IMG/VR virus record: IMGVR_UViG_2850761752_000006
Reading direction: 5' to 3' (one strand)
Source of the DNA: a virus
Lineage: Duplodnaviria > Heunggongvirae > Uroviricota > Caudoviricetes
DNA length: 22,991 nucleotides
Part shown: positions 11,289 through 17,132 of the stretch, piece by piece
How positions within the stretch are numbered: position 1 is the first letter of the stretch
How the letters are laid out: each line of letters begins with the position of its first letter
Made by a program: the position numbers and the translations under genes
Notes under the pieces: model-generated
What the model was told of the DNA's origin: nothing
What the model saw: the letters and a program-made list of their open reading frames with translations, nothing else
Database searches by the model: none

Positions 11289-11712
11289 TCAGTTGGCTGG
11301 TCGTTTAACCGACATAGTTAACCCATTAATCTGGTTGCCGGATGCTGGTGGATTTTCGCGTTTTAGTTGTTCATAAAAGTGCACAGCTTTAACCAGTTCT
11401 TCTGATGTAACCGGGACTGGTGGGGCAGTGAATAAGGCCTGAATTTCATAGTTCGGCCTGTCGTTACAATCCTCTTTTTTCGGTACATATTTCCAGTCAC
11501 CAACCCACAACTCCCCCTGAGAGTCCATAACACCTTTTTTCACGTAGCGATATCGCCACGCTATCGGCTCTGCTTCCAGCGATGCCCGTGCAATTTTGAA
11601 TAACTCGCCCTCTACTCGCGCCATCCCTGAATTGGGGTGGCATTTCGTAATCGCTATTTTTAATTTGGCTTCTTCGATTAATTGTTCTTTTGTTAATTCA
11701 GTCATTTTCATT
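11289..11712 (-). CDS. Hypothetical phage protein (141 aa); IS1 inserted about 10 bp upstream of its start codon
   Basis: ORF 11289..11744(-) starts inside IS1; first native ATG at 11712 (MKMTELTKEQLIEEAKLK...). Family not recognised. Confidence 0.55.
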
Positions 11713-11785
11713 ACCGCCCTTTCAGGCGGCGGTAATGCTGCCAACTTACTGATTTAGTGTATGATGGTGATTTTAAGGTGCTTGC

Positions 11786-12061
11786 GTGGCTTCCATTTCC
11801 ATCAGATGTCCTTCCTGCTCCGCTACTGAAGGCGTGGTGCGTAACGGCAAAAGCACTGCCGGACATCAGCGCTATCTCTGCTCTCATTGCCGTAAAACAT
11901 GGCAACTACAGTTCACTTACACCGCCTCTCAGCCCGGTACGCACCAGAAAATCATTGATATGGCCATGAATGGCGTCGGATGTCGCGCCAGTGCACGCAT
12001 TATGGGCGTTGGCCTCAACACGGTTTTACGTCACTTAAAAAACTCAGGCCGCAGTCGGTAA
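11786..12061 (+). CDS. insA: IS1 InsA
   Basis: 91-aa [46 protein letters not shown]... with zinc finger plus HTH. Confidence 0.95.
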
Positions 12062-12483
12062 CCTCGCGCATACAACCGGGCAGTGATGTGATTGTCTGCG
12101 CTGAAATGGACGAACAGTGGGGCTACGTCGGTGCTAAATCACGTCAGCGCTGGCTGTTTTACGCGTATGACAGGATACGGAGGACGGTTGTGGCGCACGT
12201 CTTCGGTGAACGCACTCTGGCCACACTGGAGCGTCTTCTGAGCCTGCTGTCGGCCTTTGAGGTCGTGGTATGGATGACGGATGGCTGGCCGCTGTATGAA
12301 TCACGCCTGAAGGGAAAGCTGCACGTTATCAGCAAGCGTTACACTCAGCGCATTGAGCGACATAATCTGAATCTGAGACAACATCTGGCAAGGCTGGGAC
12401 GGAAGTCACTGTCGTTCTCAAAATCGGTGGAGCTGCATGACAAGGTCATCGGGCATTATCTGAACATAAAACACTATCAGTAA
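11980..12483 (+). CDS. insB: IS1 InsB reading frame (expressed as InsAB' by -1 frameshift)
   Basis: 167-aa ORF overlapping insA in the -1 frame, standard IS1 layout. Confidence 0.9.
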
Positions 12484-12578
12484 GTTGGAGTCATTACCTC
12501 AGGCGGCCTCCTGATGTTCTGAGGGTGCAGAAATCCCTCCGGTTAAGGATTAAATTTTATTTGCTGTGCTAAATTTAA

Positions 12579-13034
12579 TTATTCAGTTTTTATTCCTGCT
12601 CTCAAAACAGCCTCTGCCATTCTGATATCCGGATTTTCTGAAATCATCTTTTCCGGCGAGTCGCAATCACCACCACATTCAGTTATGCGTTCATGACCAA
12701 AACGAATTGTGGTTTTGTGCGCATTAATCATTTGTGTAAGCGCATCTGTCAATTCTGCAATGCGTTTGTCTTTAACTTCCAGCTCTTTCAGTAAAGCCAG
12801 TACGTCAGGAGCGCTAACATCAACGACGGTTACGCGCGATTTCAGGTAATGCTCATCCGCAAAAGTTCGACCAGTTTTAAAATATCCATCATCCCCCTCA
12901 CCTGTGCAGGCATACACAATATGCGTTCTGGAAAATATGCGCTGTATCGACATTTCATCGCCACAAACAGGACATTCCGGCACCTGAATTGGTGAATAAC
13001 GTTCACGTAATGCCTGGTAATTAGTCTTGCACAC
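12579..13034 (-). CDS. Hypothetical phage protein with CxxC zinc-ribbon-like motif and coiled-coil segment
   Basis: 151-aa ORF; GTG start at 13034 preceded by AGGAGA; overlaps the upstream DUF4406-like gene by 14 nt. Contains CPVCG...C and CGGDC motifs. Confidence 0.55.
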   Translation of the reverse strand: MCKTNYQALRERYSPIQVPECPVCGDEMSIQRIFSRTHIVYACTGEGDDGYFKTGRTFADEHYLKSRVTVVDVSAPDVLALLKELEVKDKRIAELTDALTQMINAHKTTIRFGHERITECGGDCDSPEKMISENPDIRMAEAVLRAGIKTE

Positions 13035-13326
13035 TGGCTGTCTCCTGAAAAATCACCGCATGCCCCAGTTTCTCCGCCAGCGCCAGTTCTGCCTTAGCGC
13101 CTGCTGACCGCTGCCAGCCTTTCAGCATGTAAATCGCATCCACACAACGAATCATCGCCATGCAGATATCCATGTACTGCGGCTGTGTCAGCCCGTCCGG
13201 AAGTACTGCCGGGTTTAAGACGGTATGCCCTTCCCGTTTCAGTTCCTCTTCCGCATTGTGAAACGCCTCACGGTTGAAATTTTTATACCCGGTCATTGGA
13301 CCGGCGATATAGACTCTCACCCTCAC
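13021..13326 (-). CDS. DUF4406-like protein (nucleoside 2-deoxyribosyltransferase-like fold)
   Basis: 101-aa ORF beginning MRVRVYIAGPMTGYKNFNREAF..., the YIAGPMTG motif typical of this family as recalled; 4-nt overlap with the upstream gene. Confidence 0.6.
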   Translation of the reverse strand: MRVRVYIAGPMTGYKNFNREAFHNAEEELKREGHTVLNPAVLPDGLTQPQYMDICMAMIRCVDAIYMLKGWQRSAGAKAELALAEKLGHAVIFQETASVQD

Positions 13327-13745
13327 GCCATCACCTCCTGAAAATTACCCTGATAAAACGACAATATGCGCTGCATAACTTCGCTCTTCCGGCACTCGCG
13401 ACAGATTATGTTTAGGCGACTGTCGTAGCGACGTATTTCTCCGTCAGGTAATGACCAGATAAGGTCCGGATCAACCGCAGATGGTTTCTTCAGCTTTGCC
13501 CTTGAGAGCTTTTTACGGGCATTTTGCCAGTCCTTACGCGCCTGTTCAGACGGGAATAACCCGTAACCAGAGTTGTATACATCGCCACTGGCAACCAGCT
13601 CTCTGGCCAGAACGCTCATCAGATATCTTGTTGCCCCAGTTTTAGCTTCCAGTTGTCGTAACGTCTCGCGCCCACTCTGGCGTACGAGTTCAAGAACCTG
13701 CCCTTTAATTTTTTCCCGCTCTTCTTGTGTAAAAACTTTTGCCAC
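13323..13745 (-). CDS. Hypothetical phage early protein (140 aa)
   Basis: ORF immediately downstream of the replication initiator gene; 4-nt overlap with DUF4406-like gene; has a CRECRK motif. Family not recognised. Confidence 0.5.
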   Translation of the reverse strand: MAKVFTQEEREKIKGQVLELVRQSGRETLRQLEAKTGATRYLMSVLARELVASGDVYNSGYGLFPSEQARKDWQNARKKLSRAKLKKPSAVDPDLIWSLPDGEIRRYDSRLNIICRECRKSEVMQRILSFYQGNFQEVMA

Positions 13746-13785
13746 AAGCCCTCCTGAAAATTACCTCATGACCAGAAATTAACAC

Positions 13786-14862
13786 TTACCCCCTGAAGCC
13801 CGGCGGAATTTCGTTATCCGGTTCAGAAATATGATTCACACAACGCTGGTTGTTCGTGCCGCTTACCGGGAGCAACCAGGGGTTCTCAAAATTCCGGTCC
13901 GGTCCAAAAAACGTCGTCGCTCGCTGAACAAATTCCGTTCCCGTTTTCCCGGTAGCCGCCAGGTATCTTGCGTAACGCCTCACGCCATCCAGCATGGCCT
14001 CTGGTGGCACCCCCTCGCGTAATCTGGCCTTCCAGGCACTGAAAGCGGATTTCTTCGGGTTTGCCCCGGCACGCAACGGGTACTCCCGCCAGACCTGTTC
14101 GAACACATCCGGATAATCCACTCGTCCCACAGACTGCCCGGTGTTTTCCGGGACTACCCGATCGGCTTCCCGCTGAATGGCGGAATCGGCTTCAGGCTGC
14201 TGCAGTTGGTGTGATTGCTCCGGACTTGCGGTCATCGCCTGCTGCACAGCGCCCGAATCGGCTTTCAGCGCATACGCTGAATCGGCTTCCGGTGTCGTGC
14301 CTGCTGGCTGACCAGGATTGACGGTCTGAACATCCCCTGCCTGGTTCGTGGCGTTTTTTACGCCATGGACCATAGTGTTTTGATCTTCTTGATCTGTATC
14401 TTTATCTGTATCTTTATCTGTCGTGACTCGTCGTGACATGTGCGTGACATATCGTGACGCGCCGTGACAATCGCCATTTTGTTCCCGCTTTCTTTCCCTC
14501 TCTCGCTGCGCCCTCTTGCGCTCTGCAGGAGATTTTGCGGTTTGCGAAATATTGCCGTTGTCCTCTTTCAGCACCTGGCGTTTTTCCCATCCAGTGATTA
14601 AATCACCATCAAGTACCCGCCCCTGCATCGTCTGCAAAATTGAATCAATTACCTCTTCTGTCACGTCGAGCGCACTTGCCAAATCTTCTGTCGTGACATC
14701 AATGTGACCTCGCGTGACATTTCGTGACGCGCTCACCAGGAGGTGGATATACACTGCCATCACTGTTGCAATTGGCTGCCCTGACACCCTGGCAATTGTT
14801 CGCCACTTAGGGTCATTTGGCATGTCATGCCATAATCTGAGCCAGGCGTTAGCCATACTCAC
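13786..14862 (-). CDS. Phage replication initiator (lambda O-like / YdaU-like) with iterons inside its coding sequence
   Basis: 358-aa ORF with N-terminus MSMANAWLRLWHDMPNDPKWRTIARVSG... resembling a phage replication initiator; contains two clusters of 10-bp-phased CGTGAC repeats; follows the cro-like and YdaT-like genes. Confidence 0.6.
   Translation of the reverse strand: MSMANAWLRLWHDMPNDPKWRTIARVSGQPIATVMAVYIHLLVSASRNVTRGHIDVTTEDLASALDVTEEVIDSILQTMQGRVLDGDLITGWEKRQVLKEDNGNISQTAKSPAERKRAQRERERKREQNGDCHGASRYVTHMSRRVTTDKDTDKDTDQEDQNTMVHGVKNATNQAGDVQTVNPGQPAGTTPEADSAYALKADSGAVQQAMTASPEQSHQLQQPEADSAIQREADRVVPENTGQSVGRVDYPDVFEQVWREYPLRAGANPKKSAFSAWKARLREGVPPEAMLDGVRRYARYLAATGKTGTEFVQRATTFFGPDRNFENPWLLPVSGTNNQRCVNHISEPDNEIPPGFRG
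14422..14468. repeat. Iteron cluster 1: five CGTGAC repeats at 10-11 bp phasing, preceded by a 12-bp tandem repeat
   Basis: CGTGAC at 14422, 14432, 14443, 14453 and 14463; tctgtatcttta at 14393-14404 and 14405-14416. Confidence 0.75.
14692..14728. repeat. Iteron cluster 2: CGTGAC/TGTGAC repeats at 10-11 bp phasing plus one inverted copy
   Basis: cgtgac at 14692, tgtgac at 14703, cgtgac at 14713 and 14723; inverted gtcacg at 14660-14665. Confidence 0.7.
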
Positions 14863-16434: not shown

Positions 16435-16938
16435 TTACTGATAGTGTTTTATGTTCAGATAATGCCCGATGACCTTGTCATGCAGCTCCACCGATTTTGA
16501 GAACGACAGTGACTTCCGTCCCAGCCTTGCCAGATGTTGTCTCAGATTCAGATTATGTCGCTCAATGCGCTGAGTGTAACGCTTGCTGATAACGTGCAGC
16601 TTTCCCTTCAGGCGTGATTCATACAGCGGCCAGCCATCCGTCATCCATACCACGACCTCAAAGGCCGACAGCAGGCTCAGAAGACGCTCCAGTGTGGCCA
16701 GAGTGCGTTCACCGAAGACGTGCGCCACAACCGTCCTCCGTATCCTGTCATACGCGTAAAACAGCCAGCGCTGACGTGATTTAGCACCGACGTAGCCCCA
16801 CTGTTCGTCCATTTCAGCGCAGACAATCACATCACTGCCCGGTTGTATGCGCGAGGTTACCGACTGCGGCCTGAGTTTTTTAAGTGACGTAAAACCGTGT
16901 TGAGGCCAACGCCCATAATGCGTGCACTGGCGCGACAT
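16435..16938 (-). CDS. insB: IS1 InsB reading frame
   Basis: Identical 167-aa translation to copy 1. Confidence 0.9.
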
Positions 16939-17132
16939 CCGACGCCATTCATGGCCATATCAATGATTTTCTGGTGCGTACCGGGCTGAGAGGCGGTGTA
17001 AGTGAACTGTAGTTGCCATGTTTTACGGCAATGAGAGCAGAGATAGCGCTGATGTCCGGCAGTGCTTTTGCCGTTACGCACCACGCCTTCAGTAGCGGAG
17101 CAGGAAGGACATCTGATGGAAATGGAAGCCAC
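16857..17132 (-). CDS. insA: IS1 InsA
   Basis: Identical 91-aa translation to copy 1. Confidence 0.95.

Follow-up and report, generated by a model that had tools for sequence, protein, structure and literature searches.

Is a run of three overlapping genes behind a phage replication gene a dedicated functional unit, or a place where separate accessory genes lie packed together? The question is raised by positions 12579-13745 of the window, by which we mean the whole 22,991-nt stretch of phage DNA that was analysed. A sequence-only reading had taken these genes for a co-translated accessory module, possibly with a role in nucleotide metabolism or with an anti-host function. Our analysis favours a different explanation: it is likely that they are three separate accessory genes of the early operon, arranged head-to-tail and translationally coupled, that do not constitute a dedicated unit.

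Gene layout and prophage surroundings

The ORF list and Pfam place three genes on the minus strand: a DUF977 ("LygF") gene at 13323..13745 (140 aa), a DUF4406 gene at 13021..13326 (101 aa) and an Ead/Ea22-like gene at 12579..13034 (151 aa). The overlaps described earlier were recovered, namely 4 nt with the sequence GTGA at 13323-13326 and 14 nt at 13021-13034, and in an E. coli locus of 99.9% identity the NCBI/RefSeq annotation shows these ORFs with unchanged lengths and overlaps. Compared with other alleles, dN/dS is 0.12 for both DUF977 and DUF4406 and 0.31 for the Ead-like gene, indicating that all three are genuine coding genes.

GTG is the start codon of all three genes, and AGGAG precedes each start by 5-7 nt. 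The sequence TTTTCAGGAG is present in three copies in the 23-kb window (0.10 expected), and only at these starts. At the DUF977 start it is included in the 16-nt motif GGTAATTTTCAGGAGG (13750..13765, minus strand), which provides the Shine-Dalgarno (SD) sequence of that gene and is an exact direct repeat of 13334-13349. This second copy (13334..13349, minus strand) is located in the 3' end of DUF977, in codons F-Q-E-V, and is the SD for the DUF4406 start. The remaining copy of the shorter sequence (13042..13051, minus strand) lies in the 3' end of DUF4406, in codons F-Q-E, and is the SD for the Ead-like start. The DUF977-DUF4406 junction is kept across DUF977 allele types in related contigs, and (Y/F)QE at the DUF4406 C-terminus is retained in distant species. 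A search of the minus strand for terminators gave no matches, and the single promoter-like match was at the 3' end of the last gene. The overlaps, the SDs placed inside the 3' ends of upstream genes and the lack of internal minus-strand promoter or terminator matches thus make it very probable that the trio is co-transcribed and translationally coupled, in agreement with the co-translation first proposed.

The element that carries these genes is a decayed, IS-riddled lambdoid prophage of the Shigella type (Rac/lambda-like, defective). The gene order on the one strand is cro-like, YdaT/CII-like, O-like initiator and then the trio, the same as the lambda order cro-cII-O-P-ren (PMC3640518), and the trio follows the O-like replication gene within the early rightward (pR-type) operon. 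Head-to-tail packing and translational coupling are normal features of lambdoid early operons. The position downstream of a replication gene was confirmed, since the gene immediately upstream (13786..14862, minus strand) encodes an O-like replication initiator (phrog_3729, 2e-255); it contains iteron-like repeats, D1/D2 at 14430-14468/14690-14728 and a further pair at 14161-14196/14257-14292. On the other side, an IS1 copy (11731..12498, plus strand) is inserted 80 bp past the Ead-like stop and cuts the trio off from the remaining operon. It is recognised by its InsA/InsB ORFs, its ends and a 9-bp target duplication, TCAGGCGGC; E. coli FDAARGOS_944 carries an uninterrupted version of the insertion site. 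The next early gene (11289..11705, minus strand) encodes 138 aa from the ATG at 11705 and belongs to phrog_660 (8e-47), and its product is the hypothetical protein WP_005069274.1 in the annotation of locus L001. It groups with Ead-like proteins in a single-linkage cluster (c0), and no direct similarity was found between the 138-aa protein and the Ead-like protein.

The arrangement is already known from public genomes and from the published phage Rac-SA53 (KU052037). The lygF-rac19-ead block of that phage matches the trio in gene families and their order, in the 4-nt and 14-nt overlaps and in the lengths of the first two genes (423 and 306 nt), and is located downstream of ydaT-ydaU-ydaV-ydaW; its DNA is 91.5% identical to the DUF977-DUF4406 part of the present locus. 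The two loci differ in the ead gene, which in Rac-SA53 has 678 nt and another C-terminal part, and in the replication module, which is ydaU/ydaV/ydaW in Rac-SA53 and a single 358-aa O-like protein here. No function is given for the three genes in the Rac-SA53 annotation.

Decay of the prophage is evident from its two IS1 copies and two IS3-family elements, from the truncation of its DUF968 gene and integrase and from the loss of the late genes. In surroundings so badly degraded, and with an IS1 only 80 bp downstream, the trio could be a set of functionless leftovers whose tidy layout is historical. This is highly improbable, as none of the three ORFs is truncated by the standard of its family, all share 99-100% nucleotide identity with their counterparts in E. 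coli FDAARGOS_944, their families are under purifying selection (dN/dS 0.12-0.31), and Rac-SA53, an inducible phage, has the same genes. The purifying selection and the occurrence in Rac-SA53 speak for functional families, not for expression of the present copy.

The Ren-like and Ead-like proteins

The 140-aa protein matches DUF977 (PF06163) over residues 1-136, corresponding to model positions 1-134 of 134 (3e-30, 105.4 bits against a gathering cut-off of 22.1), and phrog_142, annotated as 'Ren-like exclusion protein' (7e-47). Residues 1-81 also match phrog_2391, a 'DNA binding protein' (9e-6), and from its sequence the N-domain is probably a winged helix. Alignment of lambda Ren with a profile of seven DUF977 alleles (hhalign 95.3%, E 2.2e-8, 89 columns) revealed homology that spans essentially the whole of Ren, and both proteins fall in PHROG 142. 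The C-terminal 20 aa of DUF977 are 45% identical to Ren in BLASTP, within a C-terminal motif common to both, N-I/L-I/V-x-K/R-E-C-R-x-S-x-x-M-x-R-V/I-L. The position of the genes is shared as well, since both lie directly after replication genes, overlapping or abutting, in the pR operon: lambda ren overlaps the end of P, and DUF977 starts at 13745, 41 nt past the stop of the O-like gene. The place of Ren directly after the replication genes is also held by DUF977 in phages mEp460, POCJ13 and Rac-SA53, in the first two without DUF4406. We conclude that DUF977 is a homologue of lambda Ren and acts as the last gene of the replication segment. It is longer than Ren (140 aa vs 96 aa), with an insertion of about 40 residues between the N-domain and the C-terminal motif, and it follows a single O-like initiator, whereas Ren follows O and P.

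An alignment of DUF977 alleles showed that the N-terminal ~65 aa are variable and the C-terminal ~35 aa highly conserved, and the allele class of the N-domain co-varies with the type of the upstream replication module; the 120 homologues retrieved with the present protein were all more than 90% identical. Ren protects lambda from Rex (RexAB) exclusion. By homology, the DUF977 protein would most likely be made alongside the replication proteins and aid the phage in escaping Rex-type exclusion by resident prophages. Literature searches for "DUF977" and "LygF" returned incidental mentions only, those of LygF in Salmonella genome announcements. The name LygF denotes a gene position in the Sdf region of Salmonella Enteritidis and is not known to be backed by functional data.

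The third protein matches Ead_Ea22 (PF13935), the family named for lambda Ea22 and P22 Ead, with 4e-20 and 73.2 bits against a cut-off of 27, and only over residues 4-105, which correspond to model positions 3-90 of 139. Among 28 homologues (alignment A2), C24 and C43 never vary, and C21 and H62 are retained in at least 90%. Its AlphaFold model (pLDDT 83) has a 44-residue helix at 76-119 preceded by beta-hairpins, of which strands 29-33 and 38-42 are predicted with moderate confidence (pLDDT 62-85), and its matches to zinc-ribbon HMMs were all below threshold. The zinc-ribbon-like and coiled-coil features noticed earlier thus seem a reasonable description, judged from the conserved C21/C24/C43/H62 and from the hairpins and helix of the model. 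The protein is built from a conserved Cys3His N-terminal beta domain, a long helix and a swappable, variable C-terminus. No significant fold match to the model was found in the PDB or BFVD. Chance-level matches to Lar restriction-alleviation zinc-ribbon proteins (E 0.16-2) recurred and were discounted.

Ea22 of lambda is described as a tetramer with N-terminal, coiled-coil and C-terminal domains and as favouring lysogeny (PMC10834534). The Ead-like protein shares this three-part plan, with a coiled coil between a short N-terminal part and a C-terminal domain, and the high sequence diversity with conserved ends of the Ead_Ea22 family is also found in the Ead-like proteins here. BLASTP gave no pairwise similarity to lambda Ea22 (E 1.6), with nothing detectable outside the Pfam N-terminal region, and the two proteins differ in that the Ead-like protein has the conserved Cys3His N-domain and in the C-terminal region, which in Ea22 has been solved by NMR and here has no PDB match. 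Their genes also differ in location, as ea22 belongs to the leftward exo-xis region of lambda and the Ead-like gene to the rightward early operon, after the replication gene. The Ead-like protein would form a coiled-coil oligomer in which a Cys3His N-domain is combined with an exchangeable C-terminal 'business end'; if it acts as lambda Ea22 does, it would probably bind a host factor and bias the decision between lysis and lysogeny.

The DUF4406 protein and its predicted activity

The 101-aa protein matches DUF4406 (PF14359) over residues 4-93, nearly the whole model (2-91 of 91; 9e-38, 129 bits against a cut-off of 22), as well as phrog_355 (5e-48), and the YIAGPMTG motif noticed earlier occupies residues 6-13. 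PHROG families labelled MazG-like or 'hydrolase' also matched the DUF4406 domain. Its AlphaFold model has a pLDDT of 91.2, and a Foldseek search of the PDB with this model placed nucleoside 2-deoxyribosyltransferases (NDTs), MilB/BcmB and DNPH1 on top (probability 1.0, TMq 0.71-0.76); the 14 matches at E<=1e-3 are all NDTs, with MilB, DNPH1 and BcmB next. The NDT-like fold previously attributed to DUF4406 is therefore borne out by a confident model and by structural matches of the highest probability. DUF4406, NDT, the dNMP N-hydrolase DNPH1/Rcl and the CMP N-glycosidases MilB/BcmB have in common a Rossmann-like (three-layer alpha/beta) fold, and the family differs from these enzymes in its size of about 100 aa vs 135-160 aa (TMt about 0.5), so that the C-terminal elements of NDT are missing from DUF4406. 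The protein also scores below the threshold of the NDT family PF05014 (14.5 vs 28.8 bits) and is about 50 residues shorter than NDTs. Sequence searches of solved structures with each of the three proteins and with the DUF4406 profile gave nothing meaningful.

Among 148 DUF4406 representatives, G9 is conserved in 100%, Y51 in 99%, S74 in 98%, G76 in 96% and E80 in 97%, and Asp53 is not conserved family-wide. In the model, Glu80 sits in the helix 75-87 that follows the strand 64-67. This near-invariant glutamate, with S-x-G before it and in the helix after the third strand, would correspond to the nucleophile site of the known enzymes, where the catalytic residue is E98 in L. leichmannii NDT and E104 in human DNPH1, which makes E80 the candidate in DUF4406. 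The Y-F-C-G-S-I-R-G-G loop of DNPH1 also resembles the N-terminal Y-I-A-G-P-M-S/T-G of DUF4406. Glu80 is thus a putative nucleophile; its mapping to NDT and DNPH1, drawn from fold and motif position, stays inferential because neither hhalign alignment of the DUF4406 profile, to human DNPH1 or to L. leichmannii NDT, was significant. The enzyme sequences used in these alignments are identical or near-identical to PDB chains.

DUF4406 is probably a nucleotide or nucleoside N-glycosidase, and the NDT fold gives plausibility to the nucleotide-related activity that had been suggested before as a possibility. Most likely, a (deoxy)nucleoside 5'-monophosphate or a nucleoside would be attacked by Glu80 at C1' and lose its base by way of a covalent sugar-enzyme intermediate, the route taken by DNPH1, MilB and NDT. 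An activity of this kind would trim or sanitise the nucleotide pool during phage DNA replication.

The same chemistry admits a second use. DUF4406 could be a counter-defence enzyme instead of a housekeeping enzyme of the pool, destroying NAD-derived or nucleotide immune signals, or NAD+, by Glu-dependent N-glycosidase chemistry as in TIR-type and NDT-like effectors. Its fold is common to enzymes that cleave nucleotide N-glycosidic bonds, NDT-like domains serve as effectors in retron defence systems, and the gene is a small accessory-region gene widespread in phages, whose family comprises 17,717 cluster representatives with a literature limited to incidental mentions for DUF4406 and to nothing for PF14359. 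We nevertheless regard this use as quite unlikely. DUF4406 has no match at E<=1 to the PADLOC models, which include retron effectors; the 36 longest of the top 150 representatives contain no second Pfam domain and so no informative fusion; and its neighbours fit DNA or nucleotide metabolism, the gene lying just after O/DnaB/DnaC/P genes in several Enterobacterales loci and adjoining DNA methylase or helicase genes elsewhere.

Linkage of the three genes

A survey of 5,426 E. coli genomes revealed very unequal frequencies. The DUF977 allele was found in 4,104 genomes (6,357 places), DUF4406 in 1,200 genomes (1,451 places) and the present Ead allele in 29, and the contiguous full trio in 19; DUF977 without DUF4406 is about four times as frequent as DUF977 with it. 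Outside the species, 77 of 80 DUF4406 loci are without DUF977 and their neighbours are highly variable. The slot following DUF4406 is variable too: Ead_Ea22 occupies it in 23 of 51 distinct variants, and DUF4752, DUF7167, DUF551 and others in the rest, and the present Ead allele follows DUF4406 in eight of 80 related phage contigs. These data do not support the proposal of an accessory module and indicate that the linkage of the trio is local synteny, the three being accessory genes that are common in lambda-like prophages of E. coli/Shigella and shuffled independently of each other. The appearance of a cassette results from the way in which lambdoid genomes hold gene order while swapping alleles at conserved junctions. 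The module reading was to fall if the genes lacked conserved linkage and all had known nin-region housekeeping functions; the evidence comes near to this for linkage, but no gene of the three has an experimentally established function.

The first two genes call for separate consideration. By tblastn coordinates, DUF977 lies against DUF4406 in 68 of the 80 phage contigs of E. coli type, a biased sample because the contigs were those with the DUF4406 closest to the query, and the junction is always overlapping or abutting. This adjacency could reflect selection for the pair and not synteny alone. DUF977 and DUF4406 would then be a genuine functional pair, and the Ead-like gene a variable addition to it; one possibility is a counter-exclusion or counter-defence unit whose small N-glycosidase is regulated or targeted by a DNA- or protein-binding partner. 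Such a pairing would agree with the persistence of the adjacency across divergent DUF977 N-domains (41-99% DUF977 identity), with the nearly constant junction and C-terminal ~35 aa of DUF977, with the coupling of translation by the 4-nt GTGA overlap and with the recurrence of the trio, with identical overlaps, in the inducible phage Rac-SA53. We consider it unlikely, however, since the 6,357 places of DUF977 vs 1,451 of DUF4406 mean that most DUF977 copies have no partner, DUF977 is alone in mEp460 and POCJ13, and 77 of 80 DUF4406 loci in other species do without DUF977. Moreover, the DUF977 allele follows the upstream replication module and not DUF4406, and Ren works in lambda, which has no DUF4406 gene.

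A toxin-antitoxin system, with an HTH antitoxin and an enzyme toxin, was rejected because DUF977 and DUF4406 are each common without the other. The suggested anti-host function found no backing either, as no anti-host or defence-related family was matched: DUF977, like DUF4406, had no PADLOC match at E<=1, the Ead-like protein had only a chance-level match to LmuB (E 0.031, 10.6 bits), and NCBIfam gave no matches for DUF977 or DUF4406 and only chance-level ones, below threshold, for the Ead-like protein. We see only a slim chance that the Ren-like protein and the DUF4406 enzyme cooperate as a counter-exclusion or counter-defence pair, in which the enzyme, directed or regulated by the Ren-like protein, would break down a nucleotide-derived signal or substrate used by an abortive-infection system. 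If true, such cooperation would explain for the first time how the 'Ren' phenotype, known for decades, comes about, and would assign a function to a family of more than 17,000 sequence clusters.

As a system, the trio carries little weight: it is routine lambdoid prophage architecture, and the arrangement breaks down outside E. coli and its close relatives. Two smaller points about its members may still be of use. DUF977/"LygF", which some three quarters of complete E. coli genomes carry, is homologous to Ren but longer, and for it Rex exclusion offers a concrete genetic assay. DUF4406, which lies right behind replication genes in several temperate-phage loci of Enterobacterales, is a very large family of proteins that have the deoxyribosyltransferase fold in minimal form and a near-invariant glutamate, and it makes a reasonable target for enzymology.

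Gene structure and prophage context

The three minus-strand ORFs that the sequence-only reading had described between 12579 and 13745, with overlaps of 4 nt (GTGA) and 14 nt, were recovered at exactly these coordinates: a DUF977 gene (13745-13323, 140 aa), a DUF4406 gene (13326-13021, 101 aa) and an Ead/Ea22-like gene (13034-12579, 151 aa). All three start with GTG, preceded at 5-7 nt by AGGAG, and within the 22,991-bp window the 10-mer TTTTCAGGAG is found at these three starts and nowhere else (0.10 expected by chance); the exact 16-nt repeat GGTAATTTTCAGGAGG contains its first two copies. NCBI annotates the same three genes, with the same lengths and overlaps, at a locus of E. coli FDAARGOS_944 that is 99.9% identical. 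These ORFs are real genes. Their dN/dS values against other alleles are 0.12 for DUF977, 0.12 for DUF4406 and 0.31 for the Ead-like gene, and the inducible phage Rac-SA53 carries the same trio with identical overlaps, annotated without function.

The window is a decayed lambdoid prophage located between pgl and mtfA, and it is a defective remnant. It contains an IpaH-type E3 ligase gene, two IS1 copies and two IS3-family elements (these two and the second IS1 lie at 8079-9235 (+), 16435-17132 (-) and 19988-21201 (-)). Both the DUF968 gene (9276-10034) and the integrase gene (21340-21984, 214 aa) are cut short, and late genes are absent, the Q, lysis and head genes of the E. coli relative being missing. 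One could take the trio in such a remnant for inert relics; with the dN/dS values and the Rac-SA53 copy at hand, we consider this very improbable. Together, the IpaH-type gene, the IS elements, the truncations and the lost late genes point to a Shigella-type host, Shigella or enteroinvasive; the closest DUF4406 cluster bears a name from Shigella boydii. The tail-fibre genes of the remnant adjoin the IpaH-type effector gene (1636-3462 (+), 608 aa), whose product pairs a type III secretion LRR domain with a NEL E3-ligase domain at the C-terminus.

Minus-strand genes run from a cro-like HTH through YdaT/CII-like and an O-like replication initiator of 358 aa to the trio, after which comes IS1. Direct repeats in the O-like gene (14430-14468 / 14690-14728 and 14161-14196 / 14257-14292), which are GTGAC-rich and contain ATCGGCTTC, look like origin iterons and, as in lambda, where ori is within O, they lie inside the initiator gene. 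Our scan found neither a minus-strand terminator-like site nor an internal promoter-like site within the trio, and this, combined with the overlaps, makes transcription of all three genes from the early rightward promoter, with coupled translation, the natural reading. Such packing is the norm in lambda, where the O/P/ren and nin genes overlap in the same way. The SD-bearing junctions are kept across related contigs and are partly protein-encoded, with a C-terminal FQE in both DUF977 and DUF4406; they would suit translational coupling and recombination joints equally well. A complete IS1 (11731-12498, 768 bp), flanked by perfect 9-bp target duplications (11722-11730 / 12499-12507; TCAGGCGGC), sits 80 bp past the Ead-like stop and 25 bp ahead of the start of the next early gene, and should deprive the early genes downstream of transcription from the early promoter. 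In E. coli FDAARGOS_944 this IS1 is absent and the target site is intact.

The DUF977 gene and lambda ren

The DUF977 protein matches its Pfam family at 3e-30 and is assigned to phrog_142, 'Ren-like exclusion protein'. Its C-terminal 20 residues are 45% identical to the C-terminus of the lambda ren product, and a profile of seven divergent DUF977 alleles aligned with Ren over 89 columns (probability 95.3%, E 2e-8), with an insertion of about 40 residues. By sequence, DUF977 is a homologue of lambda Ren. In lambda the gene order is cro-cII-O-P-ren (PMC3640518), with ren directly after O and P, and DUF977 has the same position in the window. Phages mEp460 and POCJ13 also have DUF977 in the Ren position, without DUF4406 behind it.

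Among related contigs, the N-terminal ~65 residues of DUF977 are variable (41-99% identity) and their type tracks the upstream replication module (O-like as against DUF1627, DnaC-like or P-like); hardly any variation is seen in the last ~35 residues or at the junction with the following gene. By this pattern DUF977 behaves as the closing part of the replication segment, and a recombination joint inside the gene is suggested, with alleles that are mosaic within it. The name LygF, used for it in phage records and a positional gene name from Salmonella Enteritidis, carries no function, and a literature search for it gave incidental mentions only.

Fold and putative activity of DUF4406

The second protein matches Pfam DUF4406 at 9e-38 and belongs to PHROG 355, labelled 'nucleoside 2-deoxyribosyltransferase' (NDT). 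Our AlphaFold model (23 homologues) is confident, with pLDDT 91.2 and pTM 0.84, and has four beta-alpha units. The top Foldseek matches in the PDB are exclusively NDTs (2a0k, 8pqr, 6qai; E 4e-5 to 1e-3), below which come the MilB/BcmB CMP N-glycosidases and human DNPH1; every one of these matches has probability 1.0 and a TMq of 0.71-0.76. The NDT-like fold given in the sequence-only reading is correct. The protein is below the PF05014 threshold and about 50 residues shorter than NDT, DNPH1 and MilB; it is a member of the fold superfamily, not an NDT proper.

An exhaustive profile search revealed 17,717 cluster representatives, 5,824 of them at E<=1e-10. Near-invariant positions among 148 of the top representatives are G9 (100%), Y51 (99%), S74 (98%), G76 (96%) and E80 (97%). 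E80 lies in the helix after strand 3, with S-x-G ahead of it, and would occupy the place of the glutamate nucleophile in NDT, DNPH1 and MilB; likewise, the Y-I-A-G-P-M-S/T-G loop resembles the phosphate-binding Y-F-C-G-S-I-R-G-G of DNPH1. Both equivalences are kept as putative, since hhalign gave no significant alignment to DNPH1 or NDT, whose sequences had been verified.

DUF4406 directly follows O/DnaB/DnaC/P genes in several Enterobacterales loci and adjoins DNA methylase or helicase genes in other taxa. Our best guess is an N-glycosidase of (deoxy)nucleotides or nucleosides, which would edit the precursor pool in phage replication. The same predicted enzyme might serve counter-defence; fusions, defence-model matches and the literature gave no clue to function, and we rate this role as improbable.

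The Ead/Ea22-like gene and linkage of the trio

The Pfam Ead_Ea22 match of the third protein is limited to residues 4-105. A comparison of 28 homologues shows conservation of the first ~85 residues, in which C24 and C43 never vary and C21 and H62 are kept in at least 90%, and free exchange of the middle and C-terminal parts. Conserved ends (N-terminal xNYQALRE... and a short C-terminal tail, AGIKxKGE) were also observed across the homologues compared, and could be recombination linkers or functional tails. The model (pLDDT 83) has a small beta domain, a 44-residue helix (76-119) and two short helices, with no significant match in PDB or BFVD. Several chance-level BFVD matches (E 0.16-2, not significant) were to zinc-ribbon proteins of the Lar restriction-alleviation type; Lar is a function found also in the Rac prophage. 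Lambda Ea22 is described as a tetrameric, pro-lysogenic, three-part protein (PMC10834534), and the layout here fits that description, although the two proteins show no pairwise similarity and their genes lie in different operons. The next early gene beyond IS1 (11289-11705 (-)) encodes a 138-aa phrog_660 protein with no Pfam match, which joins the Ead/Ea22-like single-linkage cluster via mosaic intermediates; direct similarity to the 151-aa protein was not found.

A megablast-sensitivity census covering 5,426 complete E. coli genomes found the DUF977 allele in 4,104 genomes (6,357 places), DUF4406 in 1,200 (1,451 places), the window's Ead allele in 29 (30 places) and the contiguous trio in 19. 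In the 80 IMG/VR contigs whose DUF4406 genes are closest to that of the window, DUF977 abuts DUF4406 in 68, as a genuine pair would, and window-type Ead follows in 8. Of 51 distinct variants, 23 have an Ead_Ea22-positive gene after DUF4406; in the others that gene is DUF4752, DUF7167, DUF551 or unannotated. Of 80 other-species loci, with DUF4406 40-66% identical, 77 lack DUF977; genes flanking DUF4406 in this set belong to hundreds of unrelated clusters. The unequal counts, the variable following gene and the DUF977-free loci argue that the pairing is as expected from conserved lambdoid order, and a genuine DUF977-DUF4406 pair seems unlikely. A near-universal Ren-like gene would end the replication segment, and a shared pool would supply the genes for the slots behind it.

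Of the earlier proposal, co-translation and the nucleotide-related fold are upheld; the idea of a dedicated module or of an anti-host system is not. The trio probably represents early accessory genes that are translationally coupled and independent of each other: a homologue of Ren, a putative N-glycosidase of the NDT fold and a regulator of the Ead/Ea22 type. Its sequence and arrangement are already known and functionally uncharacterised; useful leads are that DUF977 has a homology to Ren open to testing and that DUF4406 is a large unstudied family.
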